In this document: positions 6,215 to 60,970 of the stretch, piece after piece
Position numbering within the stretch: position 1 is the stretch's first letter
Layout of the letters: each line of letters starts with the position of its first letter
Source of the DNA: a virus
DNA length: 64,000 bases
Direction: 5' to 3' (one strand)
Virus record (IMG/VR): IMGVR_UViG_3300025570_000007
Made by a program: the position numbers and the translations under genes
The notes under the pieces: generated by a model
The model's database searches: none
What the model saw: the letters and a program-made list of their open reading frames with translations, nothing else
What the model was told of the DNA's origin: nothing

Positions 6215-6876
6215 CTACCCTGTCTTCGAGAGAATCTATCTGGTCCTCAAGGGAACTGATAGCATCAGATGTCTTATCGAAGAATTTTTGGGACAGTTCT
6301 ATAAATGTCTTTTGGGTCTTAACTAAAGCAGTCGACCTTTCTAACTCTCTCACTCTATTCCTAAGCATAGACACGTCGATCAGTAACCCTACGCAGAATA
6401 AAGCTAATATACTAATTAGTCCTATCATTATTTCTTAGATGTGTTAGAGTTTCTAAATAATATTCCACAAAGCAGGTTAAGTCCTAATGCTTGCCAGAAT
6501 GAGATTGGATGTGTTCCGTCTACTGCAGATAGTAAACATCCGTTCCACAGCAGTTGTAATAGCCATGCTAGTAGTATGGCTATTGCCACCACTACTACCA
6601 CTACTGCTATAATTGTACCTAATCTTTCCATATTAGTAAAATATAAATTTTTGATTTGTTTTAACGTTCGTAAACGACCTAGTTATACTTCTTCCTCTTG
6701 GCTTTCTTTCTAACTGTTGGTAGGTTATTCCTTTTATTTCAATATGCATTCCTTCCATCACTGTTGGGGTAATCTTTGCATTTACTTTCCGGGATGAGAT
6801 AAAGTAGCATTCATTGTTATTGTTCATATAATCTAAGTAGGTTAAGTTTAATTAAAAGCTCTTTCAGAGCCCATTA

Positions 6877-39381: not shown

Positions 39382-39935
39382 TCAAACTTTTTTAATAGAT
39401 TTTTCCACATGTATATACTTCTGTCTCTTAATGTAAGAAATAATTCATCAAGCTCTATCTGAAATGCATTAAATATTTCTGAAGAGATTATAGTGCCTTC
39501 GTCTACACCTGCTACTACTCTGTGTATTACTGCTCCTGCTTCTTTGTATTTACCTGATTTAATCCCTTCGTAAGCCCTTACTTGAGGATCCTTTCCTTTT
39601 AGCTCAGGATATAGGGTTATCAGCCCAGGGTGTCCGTTGTATATTAGGTATTCATCACATATATACGGAGGAAGTATTCTCAACCACCCGTGTAAAGTTA
39701 TTACCGGATTCTTATAATACTCTATTACACCTAGGTAATCTGAAGGGGTTGGTTTATTAGGGAGTGTTATTAGCTTTTGGCTCTCTAAAATCCTGTCATC
39801 TACCGTTCTTAGGTGGTCTGGTCTATGGTTTGTAACTATCGCGTCTGGCCAGTATCCTATACTTTCGGATAGGTCTGCTATCTCTGCTCCTGTTTGACTA
39901 AAGAATGTAATCCAAGGTCTTTTTAGTTTTGTCAT
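39378..39935 (-). CDS. PurN-like formyltransferase (candidate DpdN)
   Basis: NGHPG..P..KG and HRV...VDEG motifs; inside deazaguanine cluster. Confidence 0.8.
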   Translation of the reverse strand: MTKLKRPWITFFSQTGAEIADLSESIGYWPDAIVTNHRPDHLRTVDDRILESQKLITLPNKPTPSDYLGVIEYYKNPVITLHGWLRILPPYICDEYLIYNGHPGLITLYPELKGKDPQVRAYEGIKSGKYKEAGAVIHRVVAGVDEGTIISSEIFNAFQIELDELFLTLRDRSIYMWKNLLKKFE

Positions 39936-40109
39936 TTTATTTTCTTAATAACGTCTTCAGGTTGAACCGGATAGTAGTATTCCCCGTCATACATCCTATA
40001 ACGTGTTTTATGTATCGAATAGACACTGTCTGATTTCATTATTCTCTCAACAGTGCCTTTTATAGTTGATCCTGCGAATCTAAAAGATAGTTTATCTCCT
40101 ACTTTGTAT

Positions 40110-40904
40110 TTAAGTTTTTTTACCATTTGTGAACCATTTAAATTTATGTATATTACTTAAAATCAGATTAGTATCATCTACTTTGTGATTTATAAGTTCA
40201 AATAATTTTTGGGATTCTTTATTCCATAGTCCGTCTTCTCTGTACCCTATTCCTTTAATCCCGTGTACAACCGGATTTGACGTATCTAAAGAGTATATCC
40301 AGGGATATTCTGAGTATAATGAGAATTCCTGTGGTAGTCCGCATCCTAATAAATGGTGCTTCTTTTCTGTATTGATAATACCGTCTTTTAGTAGCTCTCC
40401 AAGTAGCTTTGCACGTCCTAGCATCCAACTAACGTACTTGTTAGGGTGTGGTACAGATTCTGTGTAATACGAGTAATCAAAGGATATAGCTATCATATCT
40501 ACCTTTGCTATCTTATCCATATATTCGTAGCATCCTGCAATACTTTCGTATGTCTTTCCTTGCACTACCCCTATCTTCTTGCCCGGAAGGTCTTTATATT
40601 TGAAGTTCCAGTAAGACATTTGTGACATAGTTTTCTTAGTGTCTTCTAATGCATCAGGAACAATGTACCAAGCCGGCTTAAGAAACTTTACCCATTCTAC
40701 AAACTTGTCTGCATCAAAGGCTTCTTCCAACTCAAAAATAGAGTTATCAAGTATAACCTCTCTTCCATCTTCTATAGCATCTACAAATAACTTAAGATAC
40801 TCCGGGTCTTCTTCAAGTAGGTGTACCAGTGCGTAATCGTAATCAGTTATTGCCTGTACTTCTTTAAAGATTCCTTTCGGACTTTCATGTGCTATTTTAA
40901 TCAT
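40110..40904 (-). CDS. dpdA: TGT/DpdA-like 7-deazaguanine transglycosylase
   Basis: LDNS.FE, PD, GVVQG, HLLG, SLDTS motifs; que-gene context. Confidence 0.7.
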   Translation of the reverse strand: MIKIAHESPKGIFKEVQAITDYDYALVHLLEEDPEYLKLFVDAIEDGREVILDNSIFELEEAFDADKFVEWVKFLKPAWYIVPDALEDTKKTMSQMSYWNFKYKDLPGKKIGVVQGKTYESIAGCYEYMDKIAKVDMIAISFDYSYYTESVPHPNKYVSWMLGRAKLLGELLKDGIINTEKKHHLLGCGLPQEFSLYSEYPWIYSLDTSNPVVHGIKGIGYREDGLWNKESQKLFELINHKVDDTNLILSNIHKFKWFTNGKKT

Positions 40905-41081
40905 CTAATCCAGCGGAGTTATAAACGGAATCTGTCCAGTCTTTTATAGCTTTTTCAAAATCTTCCGTCAATTCGTTATAATTATTTAACATTTCCGTGA
41001 TTGCTTGCATTGCTACAGAATACGGCACCATTTCCATCTTACGTGATTCTACGTATACTTTATGTTTACTTAAATCTACCA

Positions 41082-41522
41082 TTAACTGTCTGATGATCCA
41101 AAGCCTTTTTTGCCTCTTTCTGATTCTTCTATTTCTTCTGTGAATGCTACTTCACAGTCTATCATTTCAAAAATGACAAATTGAGCACAACCTTGACCTT
41201 TTAGAATTGTAACATGACTTGGGCCGTCATTATATAACTTAACTCCTAAATCCCCCCTGTAGCCATTATCTATAACTCCGAAATGAGGCTTAATTCCATG
41301 TTTAAACCCTAATCCGCTTCTTGCTTCAATCCTAAACCAGTAGCCTGGTGTAATTCTAGCTAAAGTGAGCCCTACAGGAACTACTGCTGAGTTTCCTGGC
41401 ATTATTACGGTATCTTCGACTGCAAATAAATCAAAGCCAGCATCTCCAACTACAGGGGATTCATGATTTCTTTTAGGGAGTATTGCGTCAGGGTGTGTCT
41501 TTAAAAACTTTATTTCCATCAT
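41082..41522 (-). CDS. dut: trimeric dUTPase
   Basis: AGFDL, RSGL, GVIDNGYRG, AQ, RGKKGFGSS. Confidence 0.95.
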   Translation of the reverse strand: MMEIKFLKTHPDAILPKRNHESPVVGDAGFDLFAVEDTVIMPGNSAVVPVGLTLARITPGYWFRIEARSGLGFKHGIKPHFGVIDNGYRGDLGVKLYNDGPSHVTILKGQGCAQFVIFEMIDCEVAFTEEIEESERGKKGFGSSDS

Positions 41523-41704
41523 GATTTCTTACCTAATGTTAAAGTTTTCTCAGGAAAGTCTCCTTTTTTGCCCATCCATTCTAGTACTTGAAAATCATTC
41601 TCAGTTAGGAAACTAATATTACGTTTTAACTGTTGAATCATATAATACGCTCTACGTTCTTGTGAGCTGCCTCTGTTGCTGTTTAATCCCATAACTTTAT
41701 TTTT

Positions 41705-42436
41705 TTACTTTTTTGATAACTCTATATTTTTGTAAAATTCTGCTTTTGCTGAATCTTCGTTTAAAAATGCTCCTGTTAGTTTAGCTGTTTGCATTGAAGC
41801 ACCTTGATGCTTTACTCCTCTACAGCTAACACAGTTATGTGTTGCTGATATCATTACTGCTACTCCTTGATTACCTTCACAGATTTTAGTTACTGCATTG
41901 TGAATAGCTACTGTAAGCTGTTCTTGAATAGCTCCTCTTCTTGAGAAGTGTTCTGCTATCCTATTAAGTTTTGATAACCCTACTACCATTCCATCCTTAG
42001 AAGCAATATATGCTATACTTACAGTGCCCATAATAGTCTGGTGATGGTGTGAACACATTGAATTAATTGGTATGTTAGACTCTTGCACTATTCCGTCATA
42101 TCCGTCTGAAGGAAATGCTGTAATTTCTGTTAGTGGTTCAAATCTTCCTGACCATAAATCATTTACGTATGCTTTAGCTACTCTACGAGGAGTATCTGAT
42201 GAGTTTGGATCGTTTCTCCAATCACATCCTAAAGCTGTTAGAAAATCTCCAAAAGCAACTTGTGCTTTTCCTATGATAACATCCTTTTCCTGTTCTGTAA
42301 GCTTTGCCGGTCCTTCCTCCATCGCTGAAAGTGGGTCTTGGTGTTTTGTTATATTCTTTCTCTCTAAATGTAATGATATACCGTTTGCATAACCTGCTTT
42401 TACTAGTTCAGTTCCTTCTATAAACTTTTTACTCAT
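41705..42436 (-). CDS. folE: GTP cyclohydrolase I
   Basis: TPRRVAK, SMCSHH, GLSKLNR, QEQL, HNCVSCRG. Confidence 0.95.
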   Translation of the reverse strand: MSKKFIEGTELVKAGYANGISLHLERKNITKHQDPLSAMEEGPAKLTEQEKDVIIGKAQVAFGDFLTALGCDWRNDPNSSDTPRRVAKAYVNDLWSGRFEPLTEITAFPSDGYDGIVQESNIPINSMCSHHHQTIMGTVSIAYIASKDGMVVGLSKLNRIAEHFSRRGAIQEQLTVAIHNAVTKICEGNQGVAVMISATHNCVSCRGVKHQGASMQTAKLTGAFLNEDSAKAEFYKNIELSKK

Positions 42437-42475
42437 GTTCTCTTAAGTGTTTATTATAATGTATGAATTATTCCT

Positions 42476-42901
42476 CTATTTTACAAGATAATCTTGTATT
42501 GCTTTTGCTTTTACGTCCTCCCAAGGGAAAACCATCCAGTGGTCATCGTAGATTGTCTGGCCTATTAATGTAGGTATAAATCTAGAAGTTCTTCTGTATG
42601 CTAAAGCTGCTGTTATAAACTTATGCTGTGTATATTTCAGGAACGTATCTCCTGTATCTGATATATCATCAAAAATTATAATTCTCTCTTTAACCGAATC
42701 ATGTTCCTGTCCCCAACATGCTGTATGTAACTCTATAAAGGGTATGTCGTATTTATGTGAAAATATAACTGCAGGTATTAGTCCTCCTCTAGGAATTCCT
42801 GTTACGTATGCAGGTATGTTATTCTGTTCTCCTAATTGATCTCCGATTGACTCTATCTGAGTGTTTACCCAGCTCCAGTCGTATTTGACTTTTTGTGGCA
42901 T
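42476..42901 (-). CDS. type I phosphoribosyltransferase (Gpt-like)
   Basis: PRGGLIPA, IIFDDISDTGDT, WMVFPWE. Confidence 0.85.
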   Translation of the reverse strand: MPQKVKYDWSWVNTQIESIGDQLGEQNNIPAYVTGIPRGGLIPAVIFSHKYDIPFIELHTACWGQEHDSVKERIIIFDDISDTGDTFLKYTQHKFITAALAYRRTSRFIPTLIGQTIYDDHWMVFPWEDVKAKAIQDYLVK

Positions 42902-43180
42902 TTTATGAAACGTTTTGAGTCCAGTAGTCTACAGGGCACCTGTAAGATGCTATTTGAGATTTGGATCCTGTATTACCTACTCTGTTTAACTTCTCCTTTA
43001 GGTAGTCCCACTGCTTTGGTGATAGACTATAATGGTGTACTCCTTCTGTGAAGCCTCTTAACCATTGCACAAATTGGTCTTCTGTCATAACTTTATTACT
43101 TTTACTTAAAGAAGAATTCTTCTTATTTTAATATCTAAGGCTTCCCTGCACTGTTACCGTTTCTCAAGGACTTGAGTCAC

Positions 43181-43474
43181 TTAGTAGTACAGGTCTAACT
43201 GCTTTTCTCCCCACTCGTACCGTTTTAGCAGTTCTCTGTCTGATTCTGTTGCAAACATAACTACGTCAAAAGGAATTCGACATGTGACTATGTATTTCCT
43301 TAATTCTGCAAGAGTGACGTACTCTTCCTCAACTCCTTGCCAAGGGTCTTCTGAAATGAGGTATACTGTATATTCATTCGCTTTATAGTCCCATACAGGA
43401 TGTCCTCCTATTGTTACAGTATGTTGTAATCTCTCATCACCGATGGTGGTGATAAGTTCTTTAAAATTTATCAT
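43181..43474 (-). CDS. hypothetical protein
   Basis: 97-aa ORF. Confidence 0.6.
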   Translation of the reverse strand: MINFKELITTIGDERLQHTVTIGGHPVWDYKANEYTVYLISEDPWQGVEEEYVTLAELRKYIVTCRIPFDVVMFATESDRELLKRYEWGEKQLDLYY

Positions 43475-43537
43475 TAATTAATTGTTTTTAATATATAGCT
43501 TGGTAATGTACCTAACTGCATAATAATTACAAAATAA

Positions 43538-44380
43538 TTATACACAACGTTCTGTGTTAAATGCCATTATATGAGCTCTACCTGTAAACTTGTACCCCTT
43601 ATCTCTGCACATATCCATTACTACCGGGTATGATTCAAATAAAGACTCTCTGTCGTCTCCTGCTGGCATGCACCATGTTCTACCTTTTATTATCTTTTTA
43701 ATCTCATCAAGATCGAACGGATCCGTATAAGCAGAAGCTCCAAAAGATTTCTCCTCTAAGGTTTCTGCTAACTTATCTAAAAAAGCTTCAACTTCGGGCA
43801 ATACTCTCAACTCTTTATCAATTACCGGTTTTATATGAAAATCGTAATTATACATGATTGCATCAGCTATAGTGTCTGCATTCAGCCTGAACTTATTATG
43901 CTGTTTTATCATCTTCTCGTTTACTATATTACCTATAGGTGTTGTTGCTCCAACAACTGGTACAGAATTACTAAACTTAGGGCTAATAGATAGCAGATTA
44001 ATAGGATGGTCTGTGGCGAGAAAATGAGAGCCTTCAGTTTCGATCGTAATGAAAATTTCCCTTTCATGTGCAAAATGTGTTAATTCGTTTACTAGTGTTG
44101 GATGCATTGTCGGGGAACCCCCTGTTAGCATCATTTCTGTGATATGCGGGTTTGCATCGTACATATCTATTATGTCTTGGAATTTATATACTCCCTTTTC
44201 CGGATGAATGCTCGTATACCAGGAGTCACACCATCCTCCTTCTCCGAAGTAGCATCTGTGGGTACATCCTGTTGTTCTTACTACAATGGTTGGATGACCT
44301 TGTCTTGATCCTTCTGACTGTACTGCTGTATATACCTCTAGTACCGGCAGTACTTTATTATAATTCTCTAATCTTTTCAT
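43538..44380 (-). CDS. queE: 7-carboxy-7-deazaguanine synthase (radical SAM)
   Basis: VQSEG, RTTGCTHRC...WCDS, LTGGSP, IETEG, SISPK. Confidence 0.92.
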   Translation of the reverse strand: MKRLENYNKVLPVLEVYTAVQSEGSRQGHPTIVVRTTGCTHRCYFGEGGWCDSWYTSIHPEKGVYKFQDIIDMYDANPHITEMMLTGGSPTMHPTLVNELTHFAHEREIFITIETEGSHFLATDHPINLLSISPKFSNSVPVVGATTPIGNIVNEKMIKQHNKFRLNADTIADAIMYNYDFHIKPVIDKELRVLPEVEAFLDKLAETLEEKSFGASAYTDPFDLDEIKKIIKGRTWCMPAGDDRESLFESYPVVMDMCRDKGYKFTGRAHIMAFNTERCV

Positions 44381-44824
44381 ATCCTAATTTACTTTATAAA
44401 CAGGTACACTAAAAATACTACCCCAACTACTGTACCCGCAAGTACTGTTGTCACACCTAAAAATAGTAATACTCCCTTAGTGCTATTTGTTTCGTTTTTT
44501 TTCATCTTTTAATTCTATTGCGTAGACTTCAAATGTCCATTGCTGTTCTGCCCTATCCTCAATTGTTTTCTGATGGATTTTAAGTAGGCCTGTTTTTTTT
44601 AAGCTCCTCGTATATTCTTTGCCCTGCTTGTCGTTCTATATCTGCTAAGATAAATTTAGCATTGGACTCTCCTAGTCGTTCTACCAAGGCTAAGTCAATC
44701 GTATGTTTTGATTGAATCTTCGTAGGCATTGTATCAGTACGTCCTATAGTGTACATTTTCAACCTCTCTTCCGGGATCTCAATATGCTTACCAGTAATCC
44801 CTAATACTTTTGCTATGAACTTTC

Positions 44825-45397
44825 TCATGATTTTCTATCATCATACTCTAACACTCCCTTTTCGATTGCATAATTTCTAATACCCTCTAGGTTCTGTTTA
44901 CTGAAGTTTGTAGCTTCCTTTATTGAGATACTATCCCCATAACACTCTGTCCAGCAATTAGGAGTTTCGTAAATTTTAATTTTATGTATTGCTAACCCTG
45001 TTGGAGTATCTTTATATAGAGTCTCAGACAAAACAACCATTGCTAAAAATACCTCTTTTGCAATATTCTCAACGGTTGGATTACAGTATTCATCTTCACC
45101 ATTTAATGACATTAACCACAATTTAGACTTATACTCTTTTGTAGTTTCAATAATCTTTGTATCCTTAGGATTTAAAATCATCCCATGGTCTAAAATATCA
45201 TCTATCCACTGGCAAAAGACTCTTTTAATTTCTTTAAAATCAATTGCATATCCTATCTCTTCCATATTCTCAAAAGAGAATGTTAATTCATATAGGTAGG
45301 TATGTCCGTGTAGGTTAAAACATTTCATTGCTTCGTTCATGACTCTGTGTCCTGAATCGAAATTACCTTTACGGCTAATGTACTGTGTTTTTTTCAT
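44825..45397 (-). CDS. queD: 6-carboxytetrahydropterin synthase
   Basis: FDSGH, CFNLHGHTY, DH, PTVEN, YET. Confidence 0.92.
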   Translation of the reverse strand: MKKTQYISRKGNFDSGHRVMNEAMKCFNLHGHTYLYELTFSFENMEEIGYAIDFKEIKRVFCQWIDDILDHGMILNPKDTKIIETTKEYKSKLWLMSLNGEDEYCNPTVENIAKEVFLAMVVLSETLYKDTPTGLAIHKIKIYETPNCWTECYGDSISIKEATNFSKQNLEGIRNYAIEKGVLEYDDRKS

Positions 45398-52381: not shown

Positions 52382-52473
52382 AGTATAACCTCTATTTTAC
52401 TTACCTAAAGATAATAAAAAAAGCTCACCGAAGCAAGCTTTTTTAAATCTGTTTTTTTAAAATATTTTATTCT

Positions 52474-52676
52474 ACGAGAATTCTAAGTTGAGTTTTATGC
52501 CACTAACCCTGTGGCAGATAGGAAGCCTTGTTTATACTCCCGAAACAATGTTAAACCTTGCTTTACACGGGTACTCTCTGACTTAAAGAGTGATTTTCAG
52601 TCTGTCGAATTATGTATAGTTATGTGGCTCTTAACCACCTAAGTGTTTTTCGAAGTACCTCAGTCTTTTACTACGT
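52474..52676 (-). ncRNA. Y-RNA-like element Y1 (~200 nt)
   Basis: 5' ACGUAGUAAAAGACUGAGGUACUUCG / 3' ACUCAACUUAGAAUUCUCGU; downstream of TROVE. Confidence 0.7.
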
Positions 52677-52743
52677 TAAAATATTTTAAAAGAACGTTTT
52701 CTGTGTATAAATACACAAGAGGACCCGAAAGTCCTCTTTTTTT

Positions 52744-54288
52744 TTAAATTTCTATAGCTTCAATTGCTTTGATTACAGCTCTTGGATCTATTTCAACTCT
52801 TTTTACTAGCTCATACATTTCTGATGAGTATCCAGCTAACTGGTAAAGTTTTTGAGTTGTTGGCTTAAACATTGTAGTTGAATATCCACAGATGTTTATT
52901 GAATATACGTGCATCTTGTTATAGTTGCTTGGTGAAATGTACGAAGCTCCTTGCATATCCGAGATAATAAAGATTCTGTCGTACTTATTCCCAATCGTAC
53001 TAAAAATACCATTAAACTCAGTTCCATACCCTACAGTTCCCTGTAATTTTCTAAACTGATTTTTAATAGTATTTATACTATCTAAAGGATTGAACTTAAT
53101 TGCAGCGACACTACTAGCGAAGTGGTATACATCGGCGTTAATCCCTTTACCTAAAGTTGCAGCTACTAAAGCAGCTTTTTCAATAGCAGATTTACTACCA
53201 GGTTTCCCATTTGCTAATCTGATCGATGATCCCATTGATCCTGAACTATCAAAGATAACTGCAGTTTTACCTGCTGGAAATAGTGATGTTAGGTTCGGAA
53301 TCGCAAGTTCGTAAGCTTTATCTAGTGCTGTAATGAATGGTAACGCTTTTGACGCTCCTATATCCTGTAGTAACACTTCTAATGCTAAATCGATTTGGTG
53401 AGGGAATACTAGAGATTTTCTAATAGTTGCTTCATCTGTTAAGATAGCAATTGCTCCGTCAATCAATTCTTTATTTGAACTAGTTTGTAAGATATTACGT
53501 AAGTTACGTAGTAACGCTAAATACCCTATTTTTTTAGTTGCAATTAATTCAGCATAATTTGATTCCTTAGCTTGTGTTAACTCTACCTTAGCTTCCGCTT
53601 TAGTAATAGTACCTTCTTTTACTTTCTTAGCAACATCTTGTCCAGCTGATGTATTCTTATCTTCAACAGTGTTGAATTGCTTTAACTCTCCAGTCATTAA
53701 CTGTTTGAAAGTTTTTTGCATATCTTCACTTGGTTTTGGACGAACTAAGTTTACAATATCAACTAAGGAAACATCTTTATTCTTTCCTTGGTATTTTGCT
53801 AACTCGTAAGTATCAGCAGCCTCTAAAGCAGCTTTAAATCCTTTCTTCATTGCGTTTGGCAATGGTTTTCCGGGATTGAAGTGTTGATAACAAGCTACTA
53901 TTTCTAGTAAGTCATCTAACCTAAACACGATACCTCCTGTTTTAAATTTCTTACTTCTCTTTGAGAAGAATTTACGTGCAATTCCTCTACCTGATAGGTA
54001 AGGTGCTAATGCTACTGCTCCAAACTGGGTAACACTTCTTTGGCCCATTACAGATCTAGCATATACTAGTGCTTTAGCTACGAATTCAGGTTCTTTTTGA
54101 GCTAACTTTACGATAAGCTCTTTGAATCTAACTTCTCTGTCTGATAATTTCTCGTAATAAGTATTATCAAAACCTGTTGCTAAAATAGCAACTAATTCAT
54201 GTTTTGGATCTAATTTGTAACCTTCACCTCCTTGGTGGTTTGTTACTGTAGGTGTTGCAGTCTTTTTGTTTTTGTTGTAAACTGACAT
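52744..54288 (-). CDS. rsr: TROVE-domain Ro60/Rsr RNA-binding protein
   Basis: NHQGGEGY, YQ/YE-LAKY, ALLRNLRN, vWA DSSGSM and ISDMQ motifs. Confidence 0.92.
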   Translation of the reverse strand: MSVYNKNKKTATPTVTNHQGGEGYKLDPKHELVAILATGFDNTYYEKLSDREVRFKELIVKLAQKEPEFVAKALVYARSVMGQRSVTQFGAVALAPYLSGRGIARKFFSKRSKKFKTGGIVFRLDDLLEIVACYQHFNPGKPLPNAMKKGFKAALEAADTYELAKYQGKNKDVSLVDIVNLVRPKPSEDMQKTFKQLMTGELKQFNTVEDKNTSAGQDVAKKVKEGTITKAEAKVELTQAKESNYAELIATKKIGYLALLRNLRNILQTSSNKELIDGAIAILTDEATIRKSLVFPHQIDLALEVLLQDIGASKALPFITALDKAYELAIPNLTSLFPAGKTAVIFDSSGSMGSSIRLANGKPGSKSAIEKAALVAATLGKGINADVYHFASSVAAIKFNPLDSINTIKNQFRKLQGTVGYGTEFNGIFSTIGNKYDRIFIISDMQGASYISPSNYNKMHVYSINICGYSTTMFKPTTQKLYQLAGYSSEMYELVKRVEIDPRAVIKAIEAIEI

Positions 54289-54325
54289 AACGATTTGATT
54301 TTAAAAAATTAATAAATATTTCTAA

Positions 54326-54367
54326 TAAAAAAGGGATTAAAATGCTTTTATACTTTTTAATCCCTTG
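54326..54367 (-). terminator. intrinsic terminator between Y-RNA array and TROVE gene
   Basis: AAGGGAUUAAAA...UUUUAAUCCCUUUUUU. Confidence 0.65.
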
Positions 54368-54372
54368 TGTTG

Positions 54373-54441
54373 TAAGTAGAGAATGTTAAGAAGAGCGTTT
54401 GTTTCTGAATGCGAAGTAACTCTGTCTATGACTACTACTTA
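54373..54441 (-). ncRNA. Y-RNA-like element Y2 (minimal)
   Basis: UAAGUAGUAGUCA..AGAGUUACUUCG / GCUCU..UUCUCUACUUA. Confidence 0.7.
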
Positions 54442-54444
54442 TAC

Positions 54445-54529
54445 TGTTCAAGGGAATGGGTGCAGTGGGATATTGTTAATTAGATTTGAAGTCTGAGTCG
54501 AAGTAACCCGGTTGCTAACCACTTGAATA
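54445..54529 (-). ncRNA. Y-RNA-like element Y3 (anticodon-loop-like cargo)
   Basis: UUCAAGUGGUUA..GGGUUACUUCG / AUCCC..UUCCCUUGAA; internal AGA-CUUCAAA-UCU. Confidence 0.7.
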
Positions 54530-54534
54530 TGTTG

Positions 54535-54690
54535 TTATAAGGGAATGGGTGATGACAGCTAGTTTTAACGCGCCTTTACCAATTTGGCCACCTCCCAAGA
54601 TTTCTTACTTTCTTAGTTGGGAGGGAAGGACTCGAACCTCCAAATACGTGCTCTAAATGCGATGTAACTGTATTATCTTACCACTTATAA
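54535..54690 (-). ncRNA. YrlA-like RNA Y4 (permuted tRNA-like domain)
   Basis: shared stem enclosing T-arm GGAGGUUCGAGUCCUUC, closed acceptor CCUCCCAA/UUGGGAGG, then D-arm GCCAAAUUGGUAAAGGC. Confidence 0.85.
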
Positions 54691-54697
54691 TATGTTT

Positions 54698-54845
54698 AAA
54701 AATAAAGAAGGGAACGGCTAACAGAGTGTATATCGTGCTCTACCAACTGAGCTACTGAAGGGATATATTCCCCCAGGCTGGATTCGAACCAGCGACCACG
54801 TCGTTACAAGCGAAGTAATTCTTATTATTACCACTTTTTATTTTT
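54698..54845 (-). ncRNA. YrlA-like RNA Y5 (permuted tRNA-like domain)
   Basis: shared stem enclosing T-arm GCUGGUUCGAAUCCAGC, closed acceptor CUGGGGGA/UCCCUUCAG, D-arm GCUCAGUUGGUAGAGC. Confidence 0.85.
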
Positions 54846-54968
54846 TTGTATTTCAATGAACTTTATAGATATTTCTATCTTATAGTATAGAGATAAGTTT
54901 TTTAGTCTTATCTAGCAACTCTATTCTACTTTAATTTGAAAAAAGATTTTCTATTGGATAATATACTG

Positions 54969-55040
54969 TGTCCCCAGCAGGATTTGAACCTGCGACCAAT
55001 TCGTTATGAGCGAACCACTCTACCGCTGAGTTATAAGGAC
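54969..55040 (-). tRNA. tRNA-Met/Ile2 (CAT)
   Basis: cloverleaf; loop CUCAUAA. Confidence 0.9.
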
Positions 55041-55158
55041 ATTATTAAAGAGAGTTTCGGGTCTTTCAAGGTTACTTCCCTATAGCGAGGCTAACCTTTA
55101 CCTATATCGCCAGCTGTTATGAAGCTTCACTACTCTCCTTAATGGTTTTTAAAATTAG

Positions 55159-55229
55159 AAGCGGTCGTGGGACTCGAACCCAACCGTAGGGTTATGAGCC
55201 CTGCATGCTACCAGTTACAACACCCCGCG
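55159..55229 (-). tRNA. tRNA-fMet-like (CAT), imperfect acceptor stem
   Basis: GGG/CCC anticodon stem, C1 mismatch; two extra acceptor mismatches. Confidence 0.7.
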
Positions 55230-55255
55230 ATGTTACTTTCTATTAAACTAATTAG

Positions 55256-55328
55256 CGGTCCACATGGGGGTCGAACCCACAATCTTCGCCGTGACAGGGC
55301 GACATGTTACCAACAACACTTCTGAACC
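55256..55328 (-). tRNA. tRNA-Asp (GTC)
   Basis: loop CUGUCAC. Confidence 0.85.
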
Positions 55329-55471
55329 GGTTACCTTTACATTCCAAAGGTTAAGCAGGTTTCGTTAATGGACTTTCCTTCCTTGTTTAGACTATCTGTT
55401 TTTACGCCTATATTTCAAAACTGGACTTGTTATCTAATATTCACTTAAGTAGTCATCTTAAGTTAGTTTTG

Positions 55472-55544
55472 TGGAGCCAATGGGATTCGAACCCACATCC
55501 TTTTCGTTGCAAACGAAATGCTCAGCCAGTTGAGCTATGACCCC
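55472..55544 (-). tRNA. tRNA-Ala (TGC)
   Basis: loop UUUGCAA; G3:U70. Confidence 0.92.
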
Positions 55545-55626
55545 TAGTAAAAGTAGTTAATATGACGTTTGCTCAAGTTATGGTTGACTGCTCAGCCGTA
55601 CTTTAACGGTTCTTTAACTACTTTAG

Positions 55627-55698
55627 TACTGCCGAAGGGTTTCGATCCCTCTTTTACACCGTGAAAGGGTGGTGTCCTAGCCAGTAGACGACGGCAGC
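55627..55698 (-). tRNA. tRNA-Glu (TTC)
   Basis: loop CUUUCAC. Confidence 0.88.
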
Positions 55699-55804
55699 AT
55701 TTAAATAGTAGGTAAGCTCCACATTTTCACTTACCTAACTTAGCGACCTCTATGGTTGTGAATCCATTTTAAAGGGGTTCCTCGGTTCTAAGTTTACTAT
55801 TTAG

Positions 55805-55877
55805 AGCGGATGATGGGATTCGAACCCACAACATTTAGCTTGGAAGGCTAAGACTCTACCAGTTGAGCTACATCCGC
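55805..55877 (-). tRNA. tRNA-Gly (TCC)
   Basis: loop CUUCCAA. Confidence 0.92.
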
Positions 55878-55882
55878 ACTTT

Positions 55883-56128
55883 CTATTTCCTGTATGCTGC
55901 TTTTATATCTTCAACACTAAACCAATCATATTCTTTCAAATCAGAAAGAAACCAGTGACATTTATAATCAAAGATATTATAACTTGGAAATACTTTTCTG
56001 TAAGAATTACCGTCAGCGATTTTGTGAGGGTATCTTCTTACTGCTTTACTTGCCATCCTTTTAGCGTGTGGAGTATAGTTTCTGCTATAATCTGATACGA
56101 CAGGATGTTTCTTTTTACTTCTGCTCAT
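55883..56128 (-). CDS. small basic hypothetical protein
   Basis: 81-aa ORF between tRNAs. Confidence 0.65.
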   Translation of the reverse strand: MSRSKKKHPVVSDYSRNYTPHAKRMASKAVRRYPHKIADGNSYRKVFPSYNIFDYKCHWFLSDLKEYDWFSVEDIKAAYRK

Positions 56129-56200
56129 TGTTTTCTAGTTTAACGATTAACGTAACTAGAATACAGAGTTTTTAAATTTAGTCATAGTGTTTACTTTTTG

Positions 56201-56273
56201 AGCCTCTAACCGGGATCGAACCGATGACAATCACGTTACAAATGTGATGCTCTACCAACTGAGCTATAGAGGC
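56201..56273 (-). tRNA. tRNA-Thr (TGT)
   Basis: loop UUUGUAA. Confidence 0.92.
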
Positions 56274-56405
56274 AATTAAATTAGAATAGCGCTTGAATGC
56301 CTTTTAAGTTCTCCATCAACCTCTAACTTTTATTAAAAATAACTTGTGTTATTCAACAATATTAATTTCAACTGTTTCTAGCTACACAATAGTTATTTTC
56401 TTTTG

Positions 56406-56480
56406 TACCTGAGAAGGGATTCGAACCCTCATGACCTAGAACCTAAATCTAGTGCGTAATGCCATTTCCGCCACTCAGGC
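56406..56480 (-). tRNA. tRNA-Leu (TAG), short variable loop
   Basis: CUAGA-UUUAGGU-UCUAG. Confidence 0.82.
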
Positions 56481-56490
56481 ATCTCTTATT

Positions 56491-56510
56491 ATCCAATATG
56501 TCAATGATCT
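56491..56510 (-). promoter_or_regulatory. boxA-like antitermination element
   Basis: AGATCATTGACATATTGGAT, identical to 61598-61617, between promoter and first tRNA. Confidence 0.55.
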
Positions 56511-56752
56511 CACTACTATTATACCATAAATATACGAAGTTCTACTTTACCTACAAACTTTTTCTACTTATTTCTAATTATTTCTTCAATAATAGTGTAC
56601 CTGCTAGGGTAACTTGCAATAACATCTGTTTGGGACAAAAAAGTTATTCTTCCTTTATTTACTATATATGAATCTGCTATTATTTCTTTATAGAACTTAG
56701 CTGATGGCATATTAATATATAATTTATACTTACTCATACTATTTTAATTTAG

Positions 56753-56824
56753 AGGGACATATCGGGATCGAACCGATGTAAATAGTTTTGCAGACTATCA
56801 CCTAAGCCATTCGGCCAATGTCCC
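56753..56824 (-). tRNA. tRNA-Cys (GCA)
   Basis: loop CUGCAAA; U73. Confidence 0.9.
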
Positions 56825-56948
56825 TTAGGTTCTTCTTCTACTATTTTTTCTGTTGTTGCGTTCATTGTAACTGATTTTTAAATTAATCTTTTAACTGTTA
56901 TTGAGACCTAAATATAATGATTAGATCTCAATTAACCAACTTTCTTGT

Positions 56949-57500
56949 TTAGAAAAGTAAATAAGGTTTCCACTCTTCCGGAATGTATGTTGTCTTCTTT
57001 AGTAACATTAAATAGTGTGGACGTTGTGGTTTTGGTATATTTTTTGTATACTCTTCTACCATTAGATCCGCTTTTTCCCCATTACATTTCTTACAAGCTG
57101 TTACTAGATTATCCCATGCGTTTGGTCCTCCTTTTGATTGAGGAATAACGTGATCTAACGTAAGTAACTTTTTTGTAGTCTGTCCACAATATACACACTC
57201 GAAATTATCTCTTTTATAGATATTCTCTCTTGTTAGTGGTACCTTTTGAAAGTTAAGTTTCACATAAGTGAATACTCTAATAATTGATGGTTTATTAATC
57301 TCTAAATTTGGATTAACAACACCGAATGTCTCTGGGTATTCTGCTATAATGTCTGCATTACCTTTAAAAGAGATTACGAAAGCTCTTTCAGTAGTGATAA
57401 TGCTTCTAGGAATATAGCTAGAATCGACTACCAGAGTTTTACTGTAGCGATTTTTCATAATTTCTACTTTTTGGGTTAATGAAACATTTTCTTTTTCCAT
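56949..57500 (-). CDS. HNH endonuclease
   Basis: RDNFECVYCG, TLDHVIPQSKGG, NLVTACKKCN..K. Confidence 0.9.
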   Translation of the reverse strand: MEKENVSLTQKVEIMKNRYSKTLVVDSSYIPRSIITTERAFVISFKGNADIIAEYPETFGVVNPNLEINKPSIIRVFTYVKLNFQKVPLTRENIYKRDNFECVYCGQTTKKLLTLDHVIPQSKGGPNAWDNLVTACKKCNGEKADLMVEEYTKNIPKPQRPHYLMLLKKTTYIPEEWKPYLLF

Positions 57501-57556
57501 ATGCTAAAGATCGCATATAATTATAACTCTACCAACTAAATTAGTAGTTTTCTTTG

Positions 57557-57629
57557 CACGCCTGGAAGGAATCGAACCTTCAACCTTTAGTTTTGGAGAC
57601 TACTGCTCTACCGATTGAGCTACAGACGT
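57557..57629 (-). tRNA. tRNA-Trp (CCA)
   Basis: loop CUCCAAA; G73. Confidence 0.9.
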
Positions 57630-57787
57630 ATTTACTATGCCACTAATCTACTCTTAGTCTTCCACTTAACTCTGTAAGCGGTTTTGAAGGCTTTACTACG
57701 TCTTGTATTGGCGTAGCCGATCCTTAGCGATTCTTGGTTTCCCATTAAATTACTCATTGATTTATTATTTAAAAATTTATATTTGAA

Positions 57788-58477
57788 TTAGTAGGCTATT
57801 TTTGCCCAACGTGTCTTTCCGCTCCAGATACTGTCTTTCAGTAGTATGAACGGTTGACCCTTAAGTACTACATCCCCTTTTCTTTGTGATTCTTTTGATT
57901 TTCCTATAACTCCCACTCTTATACTACGAGCAGTTTTCGCTTTCCACAGTATAGTGCTTCCTTCTACAGGCTCTATCAGCAATTCTCCTGTTGATTCCTG
58001 TATCTGTACATACCCTTTTTTGGTTAGTAGCTCTTTAATCTTATTTAAAACCTCTCCATCTTTATCTCCTCTCAATTTAATATAATCGGTGTAAGCTTCC
58101 ACAGTATTTTGGTCTTGTGCATAATCCCATAACTGGTATGTGTTTTTTTCTATCTCTAAGTGTACCTGTCTTAAGGAATCATAAGAGATTTTAATAATCT
58201 CTAATTTTACCTTCTCTCCTTGTAGATTTTCTTCTGAGATTTTTAAATCTTCCACTAAAAGTTCTGCTACATCTTTAAGTTTATTTGTTCTTAGCAGTAG
58301 TTCATTTTTTGCATCTCTTTCTCTTACTACCTCGTGTTTTGTCTCAACTGCATAGAATGCAGTAAGGAAGGAAACTATAACTAGTAACACTACTACGCCC
58401 CAAAGTACATTATTAATTGCCCTACTTTTTCGGGCATTCTTATTTGTTACTGCTATTAACTCCTTAATATTACTCAT
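57788..58477 (-). CDS. membrane-anchored coiled-coil protein
   Basis: single TM followed by heptad repeats. Confidence 0.7.
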   Translation of the reverse strand: MSNIKELIAVTNKNARKSRAINNVLWGVVVLLVIVSFLTAFYAVETKHEVVRERDAKNELLLRTNKLKDVAELLVEDLKISEENLQGEKVKLEIIKISYDSLRQVHLEIEKNTYQLWDYAQDQNTVEAYTDYIKLRGDKDGEVLNKIKELLTKKGYVQIQESTGELLIEPVEGSTILWKAKTARSIRVGVIGKSKESQRKGDVVLKGQPFILLKDSIWSGKTRWAKIAY

Positions 58478-58490
58478 AATTATAAACTAT

Positions 58491-58901
58491 TTATGTGCTG
58501 ATATATAATGCTAAATCACTCTCTACTGCTGTTATATCTTGTTCTGAATTAGGAAGTATCCCGTTTTCAATCCTGTTTACAGTTTTATCGAAGATTCGTA
58601 AGCCGTTTAGTTTCTGCTTTTGTACTTTTACTACGTTAAAGGACTTTGAAGCAAATGCTACCGGAAGTACCTCCCCTACAAACCCTGTTACTGTTCCCAT
58701 ATGTTCCCATAGCCCCTGTAATTTTGTAAGGAGTTCTGGCTTAAGTACGAAGAGAAGTCCAACAGCTACTGCAAGTACTATACCAACTATTATATAGGTA
58801 CGGGCTAATTTAATACGTGATTCTAAATCCTCTTTATAGAACTCGATATCATCTTTTAAATCTTCTATTAGTATTTTCTGCGCTTTTGACAGTTCTTCCA
58901 T
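58491..58901 (-). CDS. membrane protein
   Basis: one or two hydrophobic helices. Confidence 0.7.
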   Translation of the reverse strand: MEELSKAQKILIEDLKDDIEFYKEDLESRIKLARTYIIVGIVLAVAVGLLFVLKPELLTKLQGLWEHMGTVTGFVGEVLPVAFASKSFNVVKVQKQKLNGLRIFDKTVNRIENGILPNSEQDITAVESDLALYIST

Positions 58902-58925
58902 AATAATAAATAGTTTGGAATATTG

Positions 58926-58998
58926 TACCCCTCCTAGGATTCGAACCTAAAGTCGCCTCTTTAGAAGAGAGGTGCTTTTCCATTTAAGCTACAGGGGC
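58926..58998 (-). tRNA. tRNA-Arg (TCT)
   Basis: loop CUUCUAA. Confidence 0.9.
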
Positions 58999-58999
58999 A

Positions 59000-59215
59000 G
59001 ATACCTAGTTTTCGTACTAGGTAAACGTGAATCCGTGCTCCCTTAGAAACACCTAAATTCAACAGCTGCTAGGCTGCTAATGCAAAGTTGTCGTTTGCGT
59101 AAATACTAATCTACTATCATCCACGTTTTCCATTGTCAAAACCAGTCGGCCCCATGGTCTTAAAAGTCTCATAGTGGAGCCGGAGAGTATCGAACTCTCG
59201 TCCAACGAAATGTCA
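59000..59215 (-). ncRNA. ssrA: permuted two-piece tmRNA, tag ANDNFALAA
   Basis: acceptor piece GGACGAGAGUUCGAUACUCUCCGGCUCCA precedes GGGGCCGACUGGUUUUGAC; G3:U70; tag ORF 59098..59069; outer ends approximate. Confidence 0.9.
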
Positions 59216-59240
59216 ATAATTATCAACGATTTGTATTTTG

Positions 59241-59314
59241 TACCTCCAGTAAGACTCGAACTTACAGGTCTTAACGTCCGTAGCGTTATGTTTTTCCAGT
59301 TAAACTATGAAGGC
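59241..59314 (-). tRNA. tRNA-Arg (ACG)
   Basis: loop CUACGGA. Confidence 0.9.
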
Positions 59315-59379
59315 AGTTGTAGGATATCGCTTAACCTACTAGATGTGATCAATATCTATTTTTTTATACGATTTTTTTG

Positions 59380-59463
59380 TACCCCTGACAAGATTCGAAC
59401 TTGCAAGCCTCTAAGGCAATAGGGCTTAAACCTATCGTGTATCGCCATTTCCACCACAGGGGC
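59380..59463 (-). tRNA. tRNA-Leu (TAA)
   Basis: loop UUUAAGC; long variable arm. Confidence 0.9.
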
Positions 59464-59521
59464 ATTTGTAATGTCAAAAACTTCCCTAACGGAGGAAAAC
59501 TTCATTACGAGCTTATTTTTG

Positions 59522-59594
59522 GGTGAAAGACGGGGCTCGAACCCGCAATCGCTTGGACCACAACCAAGTGCTTTACCATTCAGCTACAATCACC
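59522..59594 (-). tRNA. tRNA-His (GTG)
   Basis: G-1:C73; loop UUGUGGU. Confidence 0.88.
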
Positions 59595-59606
59595 ATGTTG
59601 CTCTCC

Positions 59607-59933
59607 TTAATACTCTTTATATATTGCTAAATTATTTTCTACTAACCAATCACTAACGTTAACTCCTTCTATATACACTTCAGCTAAGTACCTTCCGTAC
59701 TTACCTTTCTTATCTTTTCGGGTCTTAATAGTAACTTCCTTACCTAGTACTAATTCTCTTAACCTATCTCTTGAAAATTTACCTGCTTCTTTTTCTTCTC
59801 CTCTAACTTCAGGAGCATCAATTCGTAGAATTCTTAACGGTTCTGTAAATGTCATGTTAAATCCTAAATCGATTTGTGCTGTTACAGTATCACCATCGTA
59901 AACTTTAATAATTTTTGCTTTGTAAGTATACAT
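59607..59933 (-). CDS. thermonuclease (SNase-like)
   Basis: VYDGDT, RILRIDAPE, GKYGRYLA. Confidence 0.9.
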   Translation of the reverse strand: MYTYKAKIIKVYDGDTVTAQIDLGFNMTFTEPLRILRIDAPEVRGEEKEAGKFSRDRLRELVLGKEVTIKTRKDKKGKYGRYLAEVYIEGVNVSDWLVENNLAIYKEY

Positions 59934-59956
59934 TATATTGTTTATTATAAATATTG

Positions 59957-60028
59957 TACCGATAGAGAATTTTGAAATCTCGACCTATTCCATATGAAGG
60001 AAGTGCTCTGCCTCTGAGCTATATCGGT
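59957..60028 (-). tRNA. tRNA-Met/Ile2 (CAT)
   Basis: loop UUCAUAU. Confidence 0.82.
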
Positions 60029-60037
60029 ATTATTTTG

Positions 60038-60186
60038 TGAACCATAAGGGACTCGAACCCTATACCTCCCCTCCTTTCCTACTTATAAGATCTATTAAGT
60101 ATTCATAATCAACGGAAATCACCAAGTATGTTATTGAAGTCAAGAACCTTAATCGATACAGCTCTCAGTCTCGCAATATACAGCCC
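60038..60186 (-). ncRNA. tRNA-like RNA with acceptor + T-arm and non-tRNA interior
   Basis: GGGCUGU/AUGGUUC-A acceptor (GU-rich); AGGGUUCGAGUCCCU T-arm. Confidence 0.45.
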
Positions 60187-60197
60187 ATATTTTATAG

Positions 60198-60282
60198 CGG
60201 TAGATATGGGATTCGAACCCATGTAGCTTTTACACCCTACTTGTTTAGCAAACAAGCCTCTTTACCGTTTGAGTAATCTACC
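60198..60282 (-). tRNA. tRNA-Ser (GCT)
   Basis: loop UUGCUAA; long variable arm; G73. Confidence 0.9.
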
Positions 60283-60290
60283 AGTTTTTG

Positions 60291-60362
60291 TCGGCCTAGT
60301 AGGATTTGAACCTACGACTTGCTGTGTATCGGACAGCTACTCTACCGCTGAGTTATAGACCG
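60291..60362 (-). tRNA. tRNA-Ile (GAT), C at position 33
   Basis: GCUGU-CCGAUAC-ACAGC. Confidence 0.85.
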
Positions 60363-60486
60363 TGGTGGGGAAGGTTGGATTTGAACCAACAATGTCAAAT
60401 TTCAAGTTTGATTGTTTACCGAAGTAACTCAATTGTATTACTACCATTTCTGAAGAAAGTCTACGCGAGTTGTTTATTTCTTCCCC
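60363..60486 (-). ncRNA. tRNA/Y-module chimera (anticodon UGA; Y module replaces D-arm)
   Basis: GGGGAAG/CUUCCCC-ACCA acceptor, UCAAA-CUUGAAA-UUUGA, T-arm; permuted module closed by GAAA. Confidence 0.8.
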
Positions 60487-60496
60487 ATTTTTACTG

Positions 60497-60570
60497 CTCC
60501 TTAGGTAGGTCTCGAACCTACGACCTATGCATTAACAGTGCACCGCTCTAACCAACTGAGCTACTAAGGA
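60497..60570 (-). tRNA. tRNA-Asn (GTT)
   Basis: loop CUGUUAA. Confidence 0.92.
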
Positions 60571-60576
60571 ATATAG

Positions 60577-60649
60577 TGGCTATTACCGGGATCGAACCGG
60601 TGACACCTAGATCTTCAATCTAGTGCTCTACCTACTGAGCTAAATAGCC
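60577..60649 (-). tRNA. tRNA-Phe (GAA)
   Basis: loop UUGAAGA. Confidence 0.92.
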
Positions 60650-60758
60650 TGGCTGGGGTTTAGAGATTTTGTTTAATACTCTCTCCGGGGCCACCCCCTT
60701 TAAGTACTTTTTCAACCATTTTTTCCTGTTTCCTTCTTTCGGTTAGGTCTCCGCCTCG

Positions 60759-60829
60759 TGCCGCCAGTAGGAATCGAACCTACCCAGTAGAGTTTTACAG
60801 ACTCGCTCGGCACCTTGCCTGTTGTCGGC
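60759..60829 (-). tRNA. atypical tRNA-Tyr (GTA)
   Basis: GAGU-CUGUAAA-ACUC; shortened D-arm; no long variable arm. Confidence 0.65.
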
Positions 60830-60837
60830 TTTAAAAA

Positions 60838-60970
60838 AATTAAGAGAAAGTTTAGAAGAGCTGTTTTGGTTGCAGATACGGGATTTGAACCCGTCACCTA
60901 TTGATTTGAAGTCAATTGCTCTACCATGTGAGCTAATTTGCGAAGTAACTCTTTCCATTACTACTTAATT
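60838..60970 (-). ncRNA. Y-RNA-like element enclosing a whole tRNA
   Basis: AAUUAAGUAGUAA..AAGAGUUACUUCG / AGCUCUU..UUCUCUUAAUU flanking tRNA 60867-60942. Confidence 0.8.
60867..60942 (-). tRNA. tRNA with UCA anticodon (opal-suppressor-like), encoded CCA
   Basis: AUUGA-CUUCAAA-UCAAU; canonical D and T arms; C1:A72 and A5:C68 mismatches. Confidence 0.8.

Follow-up and report, generated by a model that had tools for sequence, protein, structure and literature searches.

The 64,000-nt window analysed here opens a virus record of 104,202 bp in IMG/VR (IMGVR_UViG_3300025570_000007), whose completeness is estimated at 63%; it covers the first 64 kb of that record. Between 52.4 and 61.4 kb its minus strand carries a tRNA operon with 23 tRNAs called by ARAGORN and a permuted transfer-messenger RNA (tmRNA), and a Ro60 gene forms the downstream end of this region. 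Seven RNA elements, E1 to E7, lie beside the Ro60 gene or among the tRNA genes (Table 1). They share one bulged stem, here called the module, which is joined to cargo of several kinds, and together with the Ro60 gene they make up the candidate Ro60/Y-RNA system that is the subject of this analysis.

Table 1. Features of the Ro60 locus (window coordinates; MFE, minimum free energy; R1, covariance model of the module, see text)
Feature	Position	Strand	Description	Support
Hairpin after E1	52417..52444	-	terminator-like hairpin and U run	terminator scan
E1	52458..52690	-	long outer stem around ~156 nt of non-tRNA cargo; downstream of Ro60 gene	motif, MFE fold
Hairpin after Ro60 gene	52717..52738	-	terminator-like hairpin	terminator scan
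Ro60 gene	52744..54288	-	TROVE and vWA domains; 514 aa	Pfam, PHROG, PDB similarity
Hairpin between E2 and Ro60 gene	54326..54365	-	GGGAUUAAAA..UUUUAAUCCC, then U run	direct reading
E2	54373..54441	-	minimal form, module and 14-nt cargo (69 nt)	R1 60.8 bits, E 2e-10
E3	54445..54529	-	short form, cargo a small hairpin, AGA-CUUCAAA-UCU	R1 50.9 bits; fold
E4	54535..54690	-	YrlA-type: module, T arm, loop-closed acceptor stem, D arm	Rfam YrlA; R1 25.3 bits, E 0.019
E5	54698..54845	-	YrlA-type: module, UCG-CUUGUAA-CGA mini-hairpin, T arm, closed acceptor, D arm	YrlA; R1 26.6 bits; fold
E6	60363..60486	-	tRNA-shaped RNA with permuted, loop-closed module in D-arm place	R1 17.7 bits, E 0.95; fold
E7	60838..60970	-	module strands flanking a native-order tRNA-like body	ARAGORN; Rfam tRNA; R1 45.6 bits; fold

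By sequence, the product of the Ro60 gene is a full-length Ro60 homologue, in line with the initial annotation of this DNA, which had named it a TROVE protein. It matched Pfam TROVE (PF05731) at 54.9 bits against a cut-off of 23 (E = 1.1e-14) and the PHROG 850 family, 'RNA-binding protein', at E = 5e-34. The nearest solved structure is the Ro60 of Thermus phage phiLo (PDB 9KOP/9L5Y), which aligned with residues 16-503 (E = 2.5e-15), and the MIDAS motif of the C-terminal vWA domain is kept (DSSGS, aligned with DVSGS of 9KOP/9L5Y). The family is large: at least 1,114 proteins scored E ≤ 1e-10 among 8,000 candidates, and the best 120 relatives all share 61% identity or more and come from contigs that reach about 180 kb in length. 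A tblastn search of cultured phages returned no TROVE protein above 37% identity, and blastn of the locus against GenBank phages gave no match. The hairpin between E2 and the Ro60 gene was not called by the terminator scan because its loop is >8.

All seven minus-strand elements proposed in the initial annotation were present where it had placed them. The composite 5' motif GT[AG]GTNA-N5-8-NNN[GT]TAC[AT]TCG had exactly seven matches in the window, all on the minus strand and all at these sites, and a slightly looser form found seven in the whole 104,202-bp record, with none outside the window. The 8-mer KTACWTCG alone occurred 15 times in the window, three-fold above shuffled sequence (5.0 ± 2.3; 0 of 100 shuffles reached 15). 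Five of the seven elements lie within 600 nt of the TROVE gene, in line with the five flanking copies that the initial annotation had noted.

The covariation described for the purine between the two bulges held throughout, with A opposite UUCU in E1, E2, E6 and E7 and G opposite UUCC in E3, E4 and E5. In the second helix GAG/CUC, GGG/CCC and CAG/CUG pair as proposed, and AGA/UCU of E5 sits one base off that register. Between these two helices lies a further covarying helix (AAG/CUU, GCA/UGC, GAU/AUC, UAA/UUA, UAC/GUA, UGG/CUA), which in distant relatives is merged with the upper helix into a single helix of 7-10 bp. A conserved YUAY position follows the stem, read as UUAC in six of the seven elements and GUAC in E1. 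The layout first assigned to the elements needed two further corrections. E1 is longer than proposed (~52458-52690): its 5' motif is at 52651-52674, its 3' strand reads AAAACUC..UUCUCGU, and in the MFE fold its outer stem has ~16 bp with one mismatch. E6 is permuted, with the module 3' strand upstream of the 5' strand and a loop joining the two. Single-sequence MFE folds reproduced the module in all five elements that were folded, E2 among them. Because UUACUUCG is the complement of CGAAGUAA, the opposite strand was also considered as the source of the RNAs and was rejected: GNCGAA(N)G does not occur, and the minus strand is established by the matches to YrlA and tRNA.

Comparative support for the module came from 15 IMG/VR loci that encode a relative of the Ro60 protein at 34-76% identity. 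The strict 5' motif occurred in 13 of them, in one to eight copies, all on the TROVE strand. The 3' strands were picked by outer-stem complementarity alone, so that neither the purine:pyrimidine (R:Y) pair nor the inner helix was used in picking. Among 36 non-identical copies, the R:Y pair was A:U in 24 and G:C in 12, with no exception, and the inner helix was more stable with its own partner (-7.57 kcal/mol) than with swapped partners (-2.84 kcal/mol), the native partner being the best in 23 of the 36. Copies of the E1 type were found downstream of TROVE in relatives as well (L006, 11606; L026, 6977).

We then built a covariance model, R1, from 12 short copies; the initial annotation had suggested such a model from its seven. 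R1 gave 56 matches at E ≤ 1 in the window and 12 TROVE loci, all near TROVE genes and on the TROVE strand, including copies in two loci from which the strict motif is absent (L014 and L019). In the R1 alignment 87.9% of cells were paired, compared with 63.0% after shuffling; the covariation score was 0.676 compared with 0.216 for shuffled alignments (0 of 500 reached it) and 0.08-0.16 for slid partners, and changes on both sides were seen at 15 of 16 pairs. These figures bear on the idea that the copies are a selfish or recently duplicated repeat without a function of its own. Several copies per genome, some in tandem, are what such a repeat would leave, but the copies have only the conserved positions in common, both sides have changed at nearly every pair, strand use is strict, and the family is retained over a range of TROVE protein identities from 28 to 100%. 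This explanation is poorly supported and, in our judgement, very improbable.

The module resembles the Ro60-binding stem of YrlA, the tRNA-mimicking Y RNA of bacteria. E5 matched Rfam YrlA (RF02553) at 36.3 bits (E = 1.2e-5) over model positions 24-84, and E4 at 20.9 bits (E = 0.35) over positions 23-87. Both have the order T arm, loop-closed acceptor, D arm, which was seen in these two of the seven elements only. In a relative (L048), the whole YrlA model was aligned, at 31-34 bits. There the outer stems of the module and of YrlA (P1) coincide. GUAGUAA takes the place of the loop in which the canonical GNCGAAN0-1G ends, and the inner helix that of the 7-bp helix of YrlA; UUA matches the conserved CUA, and the 3' AUUUUCU matches the 3' loop. 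The canonical sequence has been named as the likely Rsr recognition motif, and YUAY is conserved after the YrlA stem (Chen et al. 2014, PMC4201824). Given the in-register alignment, the retained YUAY and the absence of GNCGAAN0-1G, we read the module as a counterpart of the YrlA Ro60-binding stem that has different conserved bases and would work like a Y-RNA stem. It falls outside RF02553 both by the curated threshold and by the defining motif, so the initial remark that it differs from the canonical site was correct, and the comparison with Rfam YrlA gave a full-length register match in L048, with every score below threshold.

Linkage to TROVE genes was examined with a motif-only scan of IMG/VR, run with the motif and with a reversed-pattern control; the two runs yielded at least 118 and 120 stretches and at least 80 loci each, counts that are to be taken as samples. 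Among the matches listed, a TROVE gene lay within the locus in 25 of 80 motif loci vs 0 of 80 reversed-pattern loci (Fisher p = 6e-9), which bears out the co-occurrence anticipated in the initial annotation. Over the motif loci (698 kb), R1 gave 129 matches at E ≤ 0.01; the control viral loci, 745 kb in all, had no match at E ≤ 1. Again among the matches listed, 57 of the 80 motif loci were R1-positive, including all 25 with TROVE, and none of the 23 R1-negative loci had a TROVE gene. A record-wide search covered 50 of the 55 TROVE-negative loci; L088, L093, L095, L036 and L076 were left out, the last two having contigs shared with L034 and L053, and L028 was not covered. It placed a Pfam TROVE match elsewhere in the record for 10 further R1-positive loci, and two more share a contig with such TROVE-bearing records, which brings R1-positive loci with TROVE in the locus, record or contig to 37 of 57 among the matches listed.

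A different explanation of the stem is that it serves the processing or stability of transcripts from the phage tRNA operon, for instance as a site for RNase III, RNase E or RNase P, or that it is the handle of another phage protein, in which case the link to TROVE would be mere co-residence in tRNA islands. Copies are indeed interspersed with tRNA genes at distances of up to 6.7 kb from the TROVE gene, and tandem units only 3-7 nt apart must be cut apart; yet five of the seven copies flank the TROVE gene directly and not tRNAs, and in two relatives (L008 and L010) the copies adjoin TROVE although ARAGORN calls no tRNA in either 21-kb locus. The module also occurs without a TROVE gene in some records, as this explanation would have it, but the contrast between 25 of 80 motif loci and 0 of 80 controls, among the matches listed, is harder to reconcile with it, as are the register with the YrlA Ro stem and the retained YUAY. 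We therefore consider a processing element rather unlikely.

Several results weigh against a Ro60/Y-RNA system. No TROVE was found in the records of 20 of the 57 R1-positive loci, 18 of these 20 records being at most 38% complete. Two records (G032, 94% complete; G001, 62%) have a clear YrlA-type module copy and no TROVE by Pfam or protein search; a host Ro60 could serve there. Conversely, R1 had no match at two other TROVE loci, one from Vibrio phage phiKT1024 and the other from a small-genome bacterium. In the window, R1 missed E1 at E ≤ 1 and found E6 only at E = 0.95, and the alignments were fitted to the R1 model, which favours structure. Folding energies were not significant (z = -0.4 to -1.6 in the five of seven elements folded); the structure of the module is thus supported by comparison, not by energy. 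The YrlA scores of 36.3, 20.9 and 31-34 bits are all under the gathering score of 69, Rfam YrlA had no match in E1-E3, and none reached the gathering threshold anywhere in the window, E6 and E7 included. Finally, GNCGAAN0-1G is absent from all seven elements, and GNCGAANG had eight matches in the window vs 8.9 expected, none of them inside an element. On balance, the register with the YrlA stem and the TROVE linkage make a phage-encoded Ro60/Y-RNA system the likely reading, from which we infer that the module binds Ro60.

The part carried by the module varies widely. One stem was found with at least five cargo classes, in up to eight copies per locus. The cargo is short, of YrlA type, tRNA-like in native order, long and unlike tRNA, or shaped like a tRNA that ends in CCA and has the module in place of its D arm. 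In a census of 151 distinct R1 matches, 57 were ≤100 nt, 41 had a T loop in the 5' half (YrlA type), 32 had a native-order tRNA by ARAGORN, 10 had a late T loop and no ARAGORN call, and 11 were long and without a T loop. Close relatives have arrays in which the classes are mixed and their order differs. In YrlA-type copies, pairing between a conserved UCG and a CGA further downstream gives a mini-hairpin whose loop has 7-9 nt. Of 52 short cargos, 11 fold to a hairpin with a 7-nt loop, compared with 2.0 ± 1.4 (maximum 8) after shuffling. Recurrent 7-nt loops, UUUGGAU/UUUUGGU, were seen on 4-6-bp stems right after the conserved UCG, for example in L060 (5715-5789), L044 (1561-1636) and L072 (6584-6659).

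Native-order copies such as E7 raise the question of whether they are genuine tRNA precursors, the leader and trailer of which form the handle, with Ro60 as a chaperone, store or licence for maturation and E7 as an opal suppressor. The E7 body (60867-60942) has the anticodon UCA by ARAGORN, C1xA72 and an encoded ACCA, and scores 60.5 bits on Rfam tRNA (RF00005; threshold 29), within the range of ordinary tRNAs. Its A73-CCA is a further point for this view: an encoded N73-CCA is found in E6 (60363-60366) and E7 (60867-60870) only, and in none of the 22 ordinary tRNAs of the window. GenBank, moreover, labels such bodies tRNA-Lys, tRNA-Tyr and tRNA-Gln in the crAss-like phages csAssE-Sib and cr111_1. 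Against this, the acceptor stems of 11 native-order examples range from 7 bp with C1xA72 to 4 bp (UUCG/CGAA), and among these 11 CCA was found in E7 only. The native-order bodies have more than 20 different anticodons (UCA twice, UUA once), often duplicating an ordinary tRNA of the same array, and Ser and Leu anticodons occur on 73-76-nt bodies without a long variable arm. TGA recoding was considered as a reason for the UCA tRNA and rejected: the standard code already yields 80 frames of at least 150 aa, TGA ends 17 of these 80, and TGA read-through adds no more than TAG read-through. We regard the precursor explanation as unlikely. Because of the defective acceptors, the variety of anticodons and the lack of TGA recoding, the tRNA-like bodies are probably mimics rather than decoding tRNAs, and E7 itself may be one too. 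The 'real tRNA bodies' of the initial annotation, whose relatives have acceptors of 4-7 bp, often C1xA72 and usually no CCA, were therefore overstated, and so was the novelty of the native order (see below). Its proposed family of Ro ribonucleoproteins (RNPs) is partly supported, by the stem position and the TROVE linkage among other results.

E6 represents a different construction. Its body has a 7-bp acceptor stem (GGGGAAG/CUUCCCC), an anticodon-like arm, a T arm and an encoded ACCA, and gave a partial Rfam tRNA match of 29.9 bits. The class comprises 13 sequences from 13 records with a 7-bp GGGG acceptor stem and a loop-closed permuted module, usually with an anticodon-like arm, a T arm and a 3' ACCA or ACAA as well. 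In the alignment of these 13 sequences, compensatory change is seen at 14 of the 20 consensus pairs. The terminal A of E6 abuts the downstream tRNA-Ile, whose position 1 is at 60362, so that an RNase P cut there would leave a CCA end; we infer that E6 could obtain a ready CCA end in this way.

The family extends to distant phages. In a 635-kb uncultured megaphage, csAssE-Sib and cr111_1, R1 matches lie immediately upstream of TROVE genes of just 28-37% identity; with the weaker case of crAss001 included, the identities span 25-37%. In csAssE-Sib (L145, OR575929, 5640-5916) one R1 match encloses an annotated tRNA-Lys and a third module copy, seen by eye, surrounds an annotated tRNA-Tyr; in cr111_1 (L147, 4891-5021) one R1 match encloses an annotated tRNA-Gln. 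These three genes of crAss-like phages, annotated as tRNAs in GenBank, lie within the shared stem and may be Y-like RNAs and not tRNAs. The module family is weakly indicated in crAss001 (NC_049977), where an unannotated 900-nt gap after the TROVE gene gp96 gave R1 matches of 23.2, 21.9 and 14.3 bits, with E-values of 2e-4 to 0.02 that hold for the 921-nt search only; two permuted copies were seen there by eye besides. gp96 is reported to be an early gene (crAss001 BMC Biol paper). If the crAss001 matches hold, the system would be open to testing in a laboratory host. Also by eye, crAss001 (L146) has at 6083-6230 a further topology, in which a loop-closed copy of the stem replaces the anticodon arm and the acceptor stem, D arm and T arm are intact.

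In the proposed Ro60/Y-RNA system, the phage would make a Ro60 ring protein and seven small RNAs. Common to all of these is a bulged stem that starts with an outer helix (P1), a bulged U and a 2-bp RG/CY step, continues through an asymmetric loop (5' U-N-A against 3' (A/C)AUU) and a helix of 7-10 bp, and ends in a single-stranded UACUUCG opposite an A-rich 3' stretch. As a lineage-specific counterpart of the YrlA Ro60-binding stem, it would most likely dock the RNA on the outer face of the Ro60 ring. The protruding body, which varies from a small hairpin to a permuted YrlA-type mimic, a native-order mimic, a CCA-ending shape and a 150-nt non-tRNA domain, would gate the ring or tether host or phage factors that recognise tRNA. 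Candidate partners are PNPase, as in RYPER, and enzymes of tRNA processing, repair or defence. The RNAs, lying in or beside the tRNA operon, would probably be excised by tRNA-processing nucleases. We assign the constant stem to Ro60 and the variable cargo to an adaptor role because known Ro60 RNPs are built in this way: the Y-RNA stem binds the ring, and the rest gates it or tethers PNPase (PMC4201824, PMC12135203).

The locus has several known counterparts, with which it shares different features. That several Y RNAs have one Ro-binding stem and differing loops is the established design of Y RNAs. YrlA with Rsr/Ro60 (RF02553; PMC4201824) is alike in being encoded beside the Ro60 gene, in a stem of outer helix, asymmetric loop, 7-bp helix and conserved YUAY, and in the core order of T arm, closed acceptor and D arm seen in E4 and E5; examples from 22 bacteriophages have been described (Chen et al. 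2014, PMC4201824). The present RNAs differ in having GURGUNA and UUCY where YrlA has GNCGAAN0-1G, in scoring under the Rfam threshold, in the mini-hairpin (UCG-loop-CGA) that the YrlA-type copies add between stem and T arm, and in joining one stem to at least five cargo classes. Yrn1 of Deinococcus radiodurans has been modelled with the layout of E7, as a native-order tRNA-like RNA that has an anticodon-like arm and carries the Ro stem in place of the acceptor (Chen et al. 2014, PMC4201824), so that the native order, for which the initial annotation knew of no description, had a precedent. Unlike Yrn1, however, the E7-type D, anticodon, variable and T parts are complete enough for ARAGORN and Rfam tRNA calls, and the handle sequence differs.

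Among phages, Thermus phage phiLo encodes two Y-like RNAs, Yrl1 and Yrl2, upstream of its Ro60 gene, and these RNAs and the protein form RYPER-like complexes with host PNPase (PMC12135203). The phiLo RNAs were picked by a CGAA motif, no tRNA-like cargo classes are reported for them, and there are two RNAs there compared with seven here. Metazoan Y RNAs (hY1, hY3, hY4, hY5) are likewise built on one Ro-binding bulged stem with a differing loop or effector part, and Ro60 recognises the bulged helix (PMC12135203), but they are without tRNA-like cargo and have the motif GGUCCGA (PMC4201824). Phage Bas63 has a Ro60-like gene, gp130, directly upstream of a phage tRNA block, and gp130 counters the ppl defence (PhageMaP preprint, 2024, PMC11482910). 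The PhageMaP authors suggest, as a suggestion only, that some Bas63 'tRNA' genes are Y RNAs (PMC11482910); the passage on them gives no RNA motif or structure, and the phage lineage differs. Phage Ro60 with Y-like RNAs, the tRNA mimicry of YrlA, the native-order mimicry of Yrn1 and a stem common to several Y RNAs are thus already known. No description of this stem or of its cargo classes was found in the literature, with the limit that the supplemental phage YrlA lists of Chen et al. 2014 may contain such RNAs. New, as far as our searches reach, are the conserved-base set of the module, the use of this one stem with five or more cargo classes in a single locus, the tRNA shape that ends in CCA and holds the stem in place of its D arm, and the occurrence of the family in crAss-like phages, some members annotated as tRNAs.

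A constant stem that is joined to tRNA-like bodies at different points, and that also occurs in minimal forms of 65-90 nt with little besides the stem, offers a natural experiment on why Y RNAs imitate tRNA. A role in the contest between phage and host over tRNA is a conjecture that the counter-defence activity of Bas63 gp130 and the tRNA-operon setting make plausible. Since a Ro60-like protein has been tied to escape from defence (PMC11482910), the RNAs may be part of counter-defence. One tentative and, we think, still improbable form of this idea is that Ro60 acts as a carrier of tRNA look-alikes, interchangeable with one another, which between them would display all faces of a tRNA. The form with a closed acceptor would show the elbow; the native form would show a fast-changing anticodon loop, with the acceptor end buried; and the third form would have a free, genome-encoded CCA end, which could even be charged and so link Ro60 to translation. 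Such particles might intercept or sense host weapons that cut or modify tRNA, namely anticodon nucleases and acceptor-end toxins, or, early in infection, might recruit PNPase or repair enzymes to tRNA that has been damaged.

Around the Ro60 locus, small open reading frames within the tRNA operon include an HNH endonuclease and an SNase-like gene. The upstream genes encode DNA polymerase A, the 7-deazaguanine pathway, a class II ribonucleotide reductase and a metallophosphoesterase; the 7-deazaguanine (queuosine precursor) cluster, at 37937-45397 on the minus strand, comprises a QueF-like protein, GTP cyclohydrolase I, a radical SAM protein and PTPS. A scan for sigma-70 promoters gave 12 sites vs 9.7 expected. 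A scan of genome contigs gave one contig from a metagenome-assembled genome (MAG), L139, which resembles the same kind of phage. This 104.6-kb contig, in MAG G050 of a small-genome phylum, encodes a TROVE protein 74% identical to that of the window and carries several copies of the stem. It is probably a mis-binned phage contig, or else a hint about the host; TROVE was found in 2 of 301 genomes of the phylum of G050, a count that says nothing on Bacteroidota.

Three further observations concern the tRNA array. The permuted (two-piece) tmRNA inside the operon (59069-59227, minus strand) scored 64.3 bits against the Rfam gathering score of 47 and is far shorter than usual tmRNAs; the relative L013 has a standard tmRNA match (72.5 bits) in place of the permuted form. 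A tRNA-Tyr-like sequence at ~60760-60835 on the minus strand, with the anticodon loop CUGUAAA, a long variable arm and a T arm, was called by neither ARAGORN nor Rfam, and relatives L006 and L007 have a called tRNA-Tyr(gta). Finally, in L013, a related TROVE phage, a GOLLD RNA match of 256 bits (5451-5873) lies just upstream of the tRNA array.

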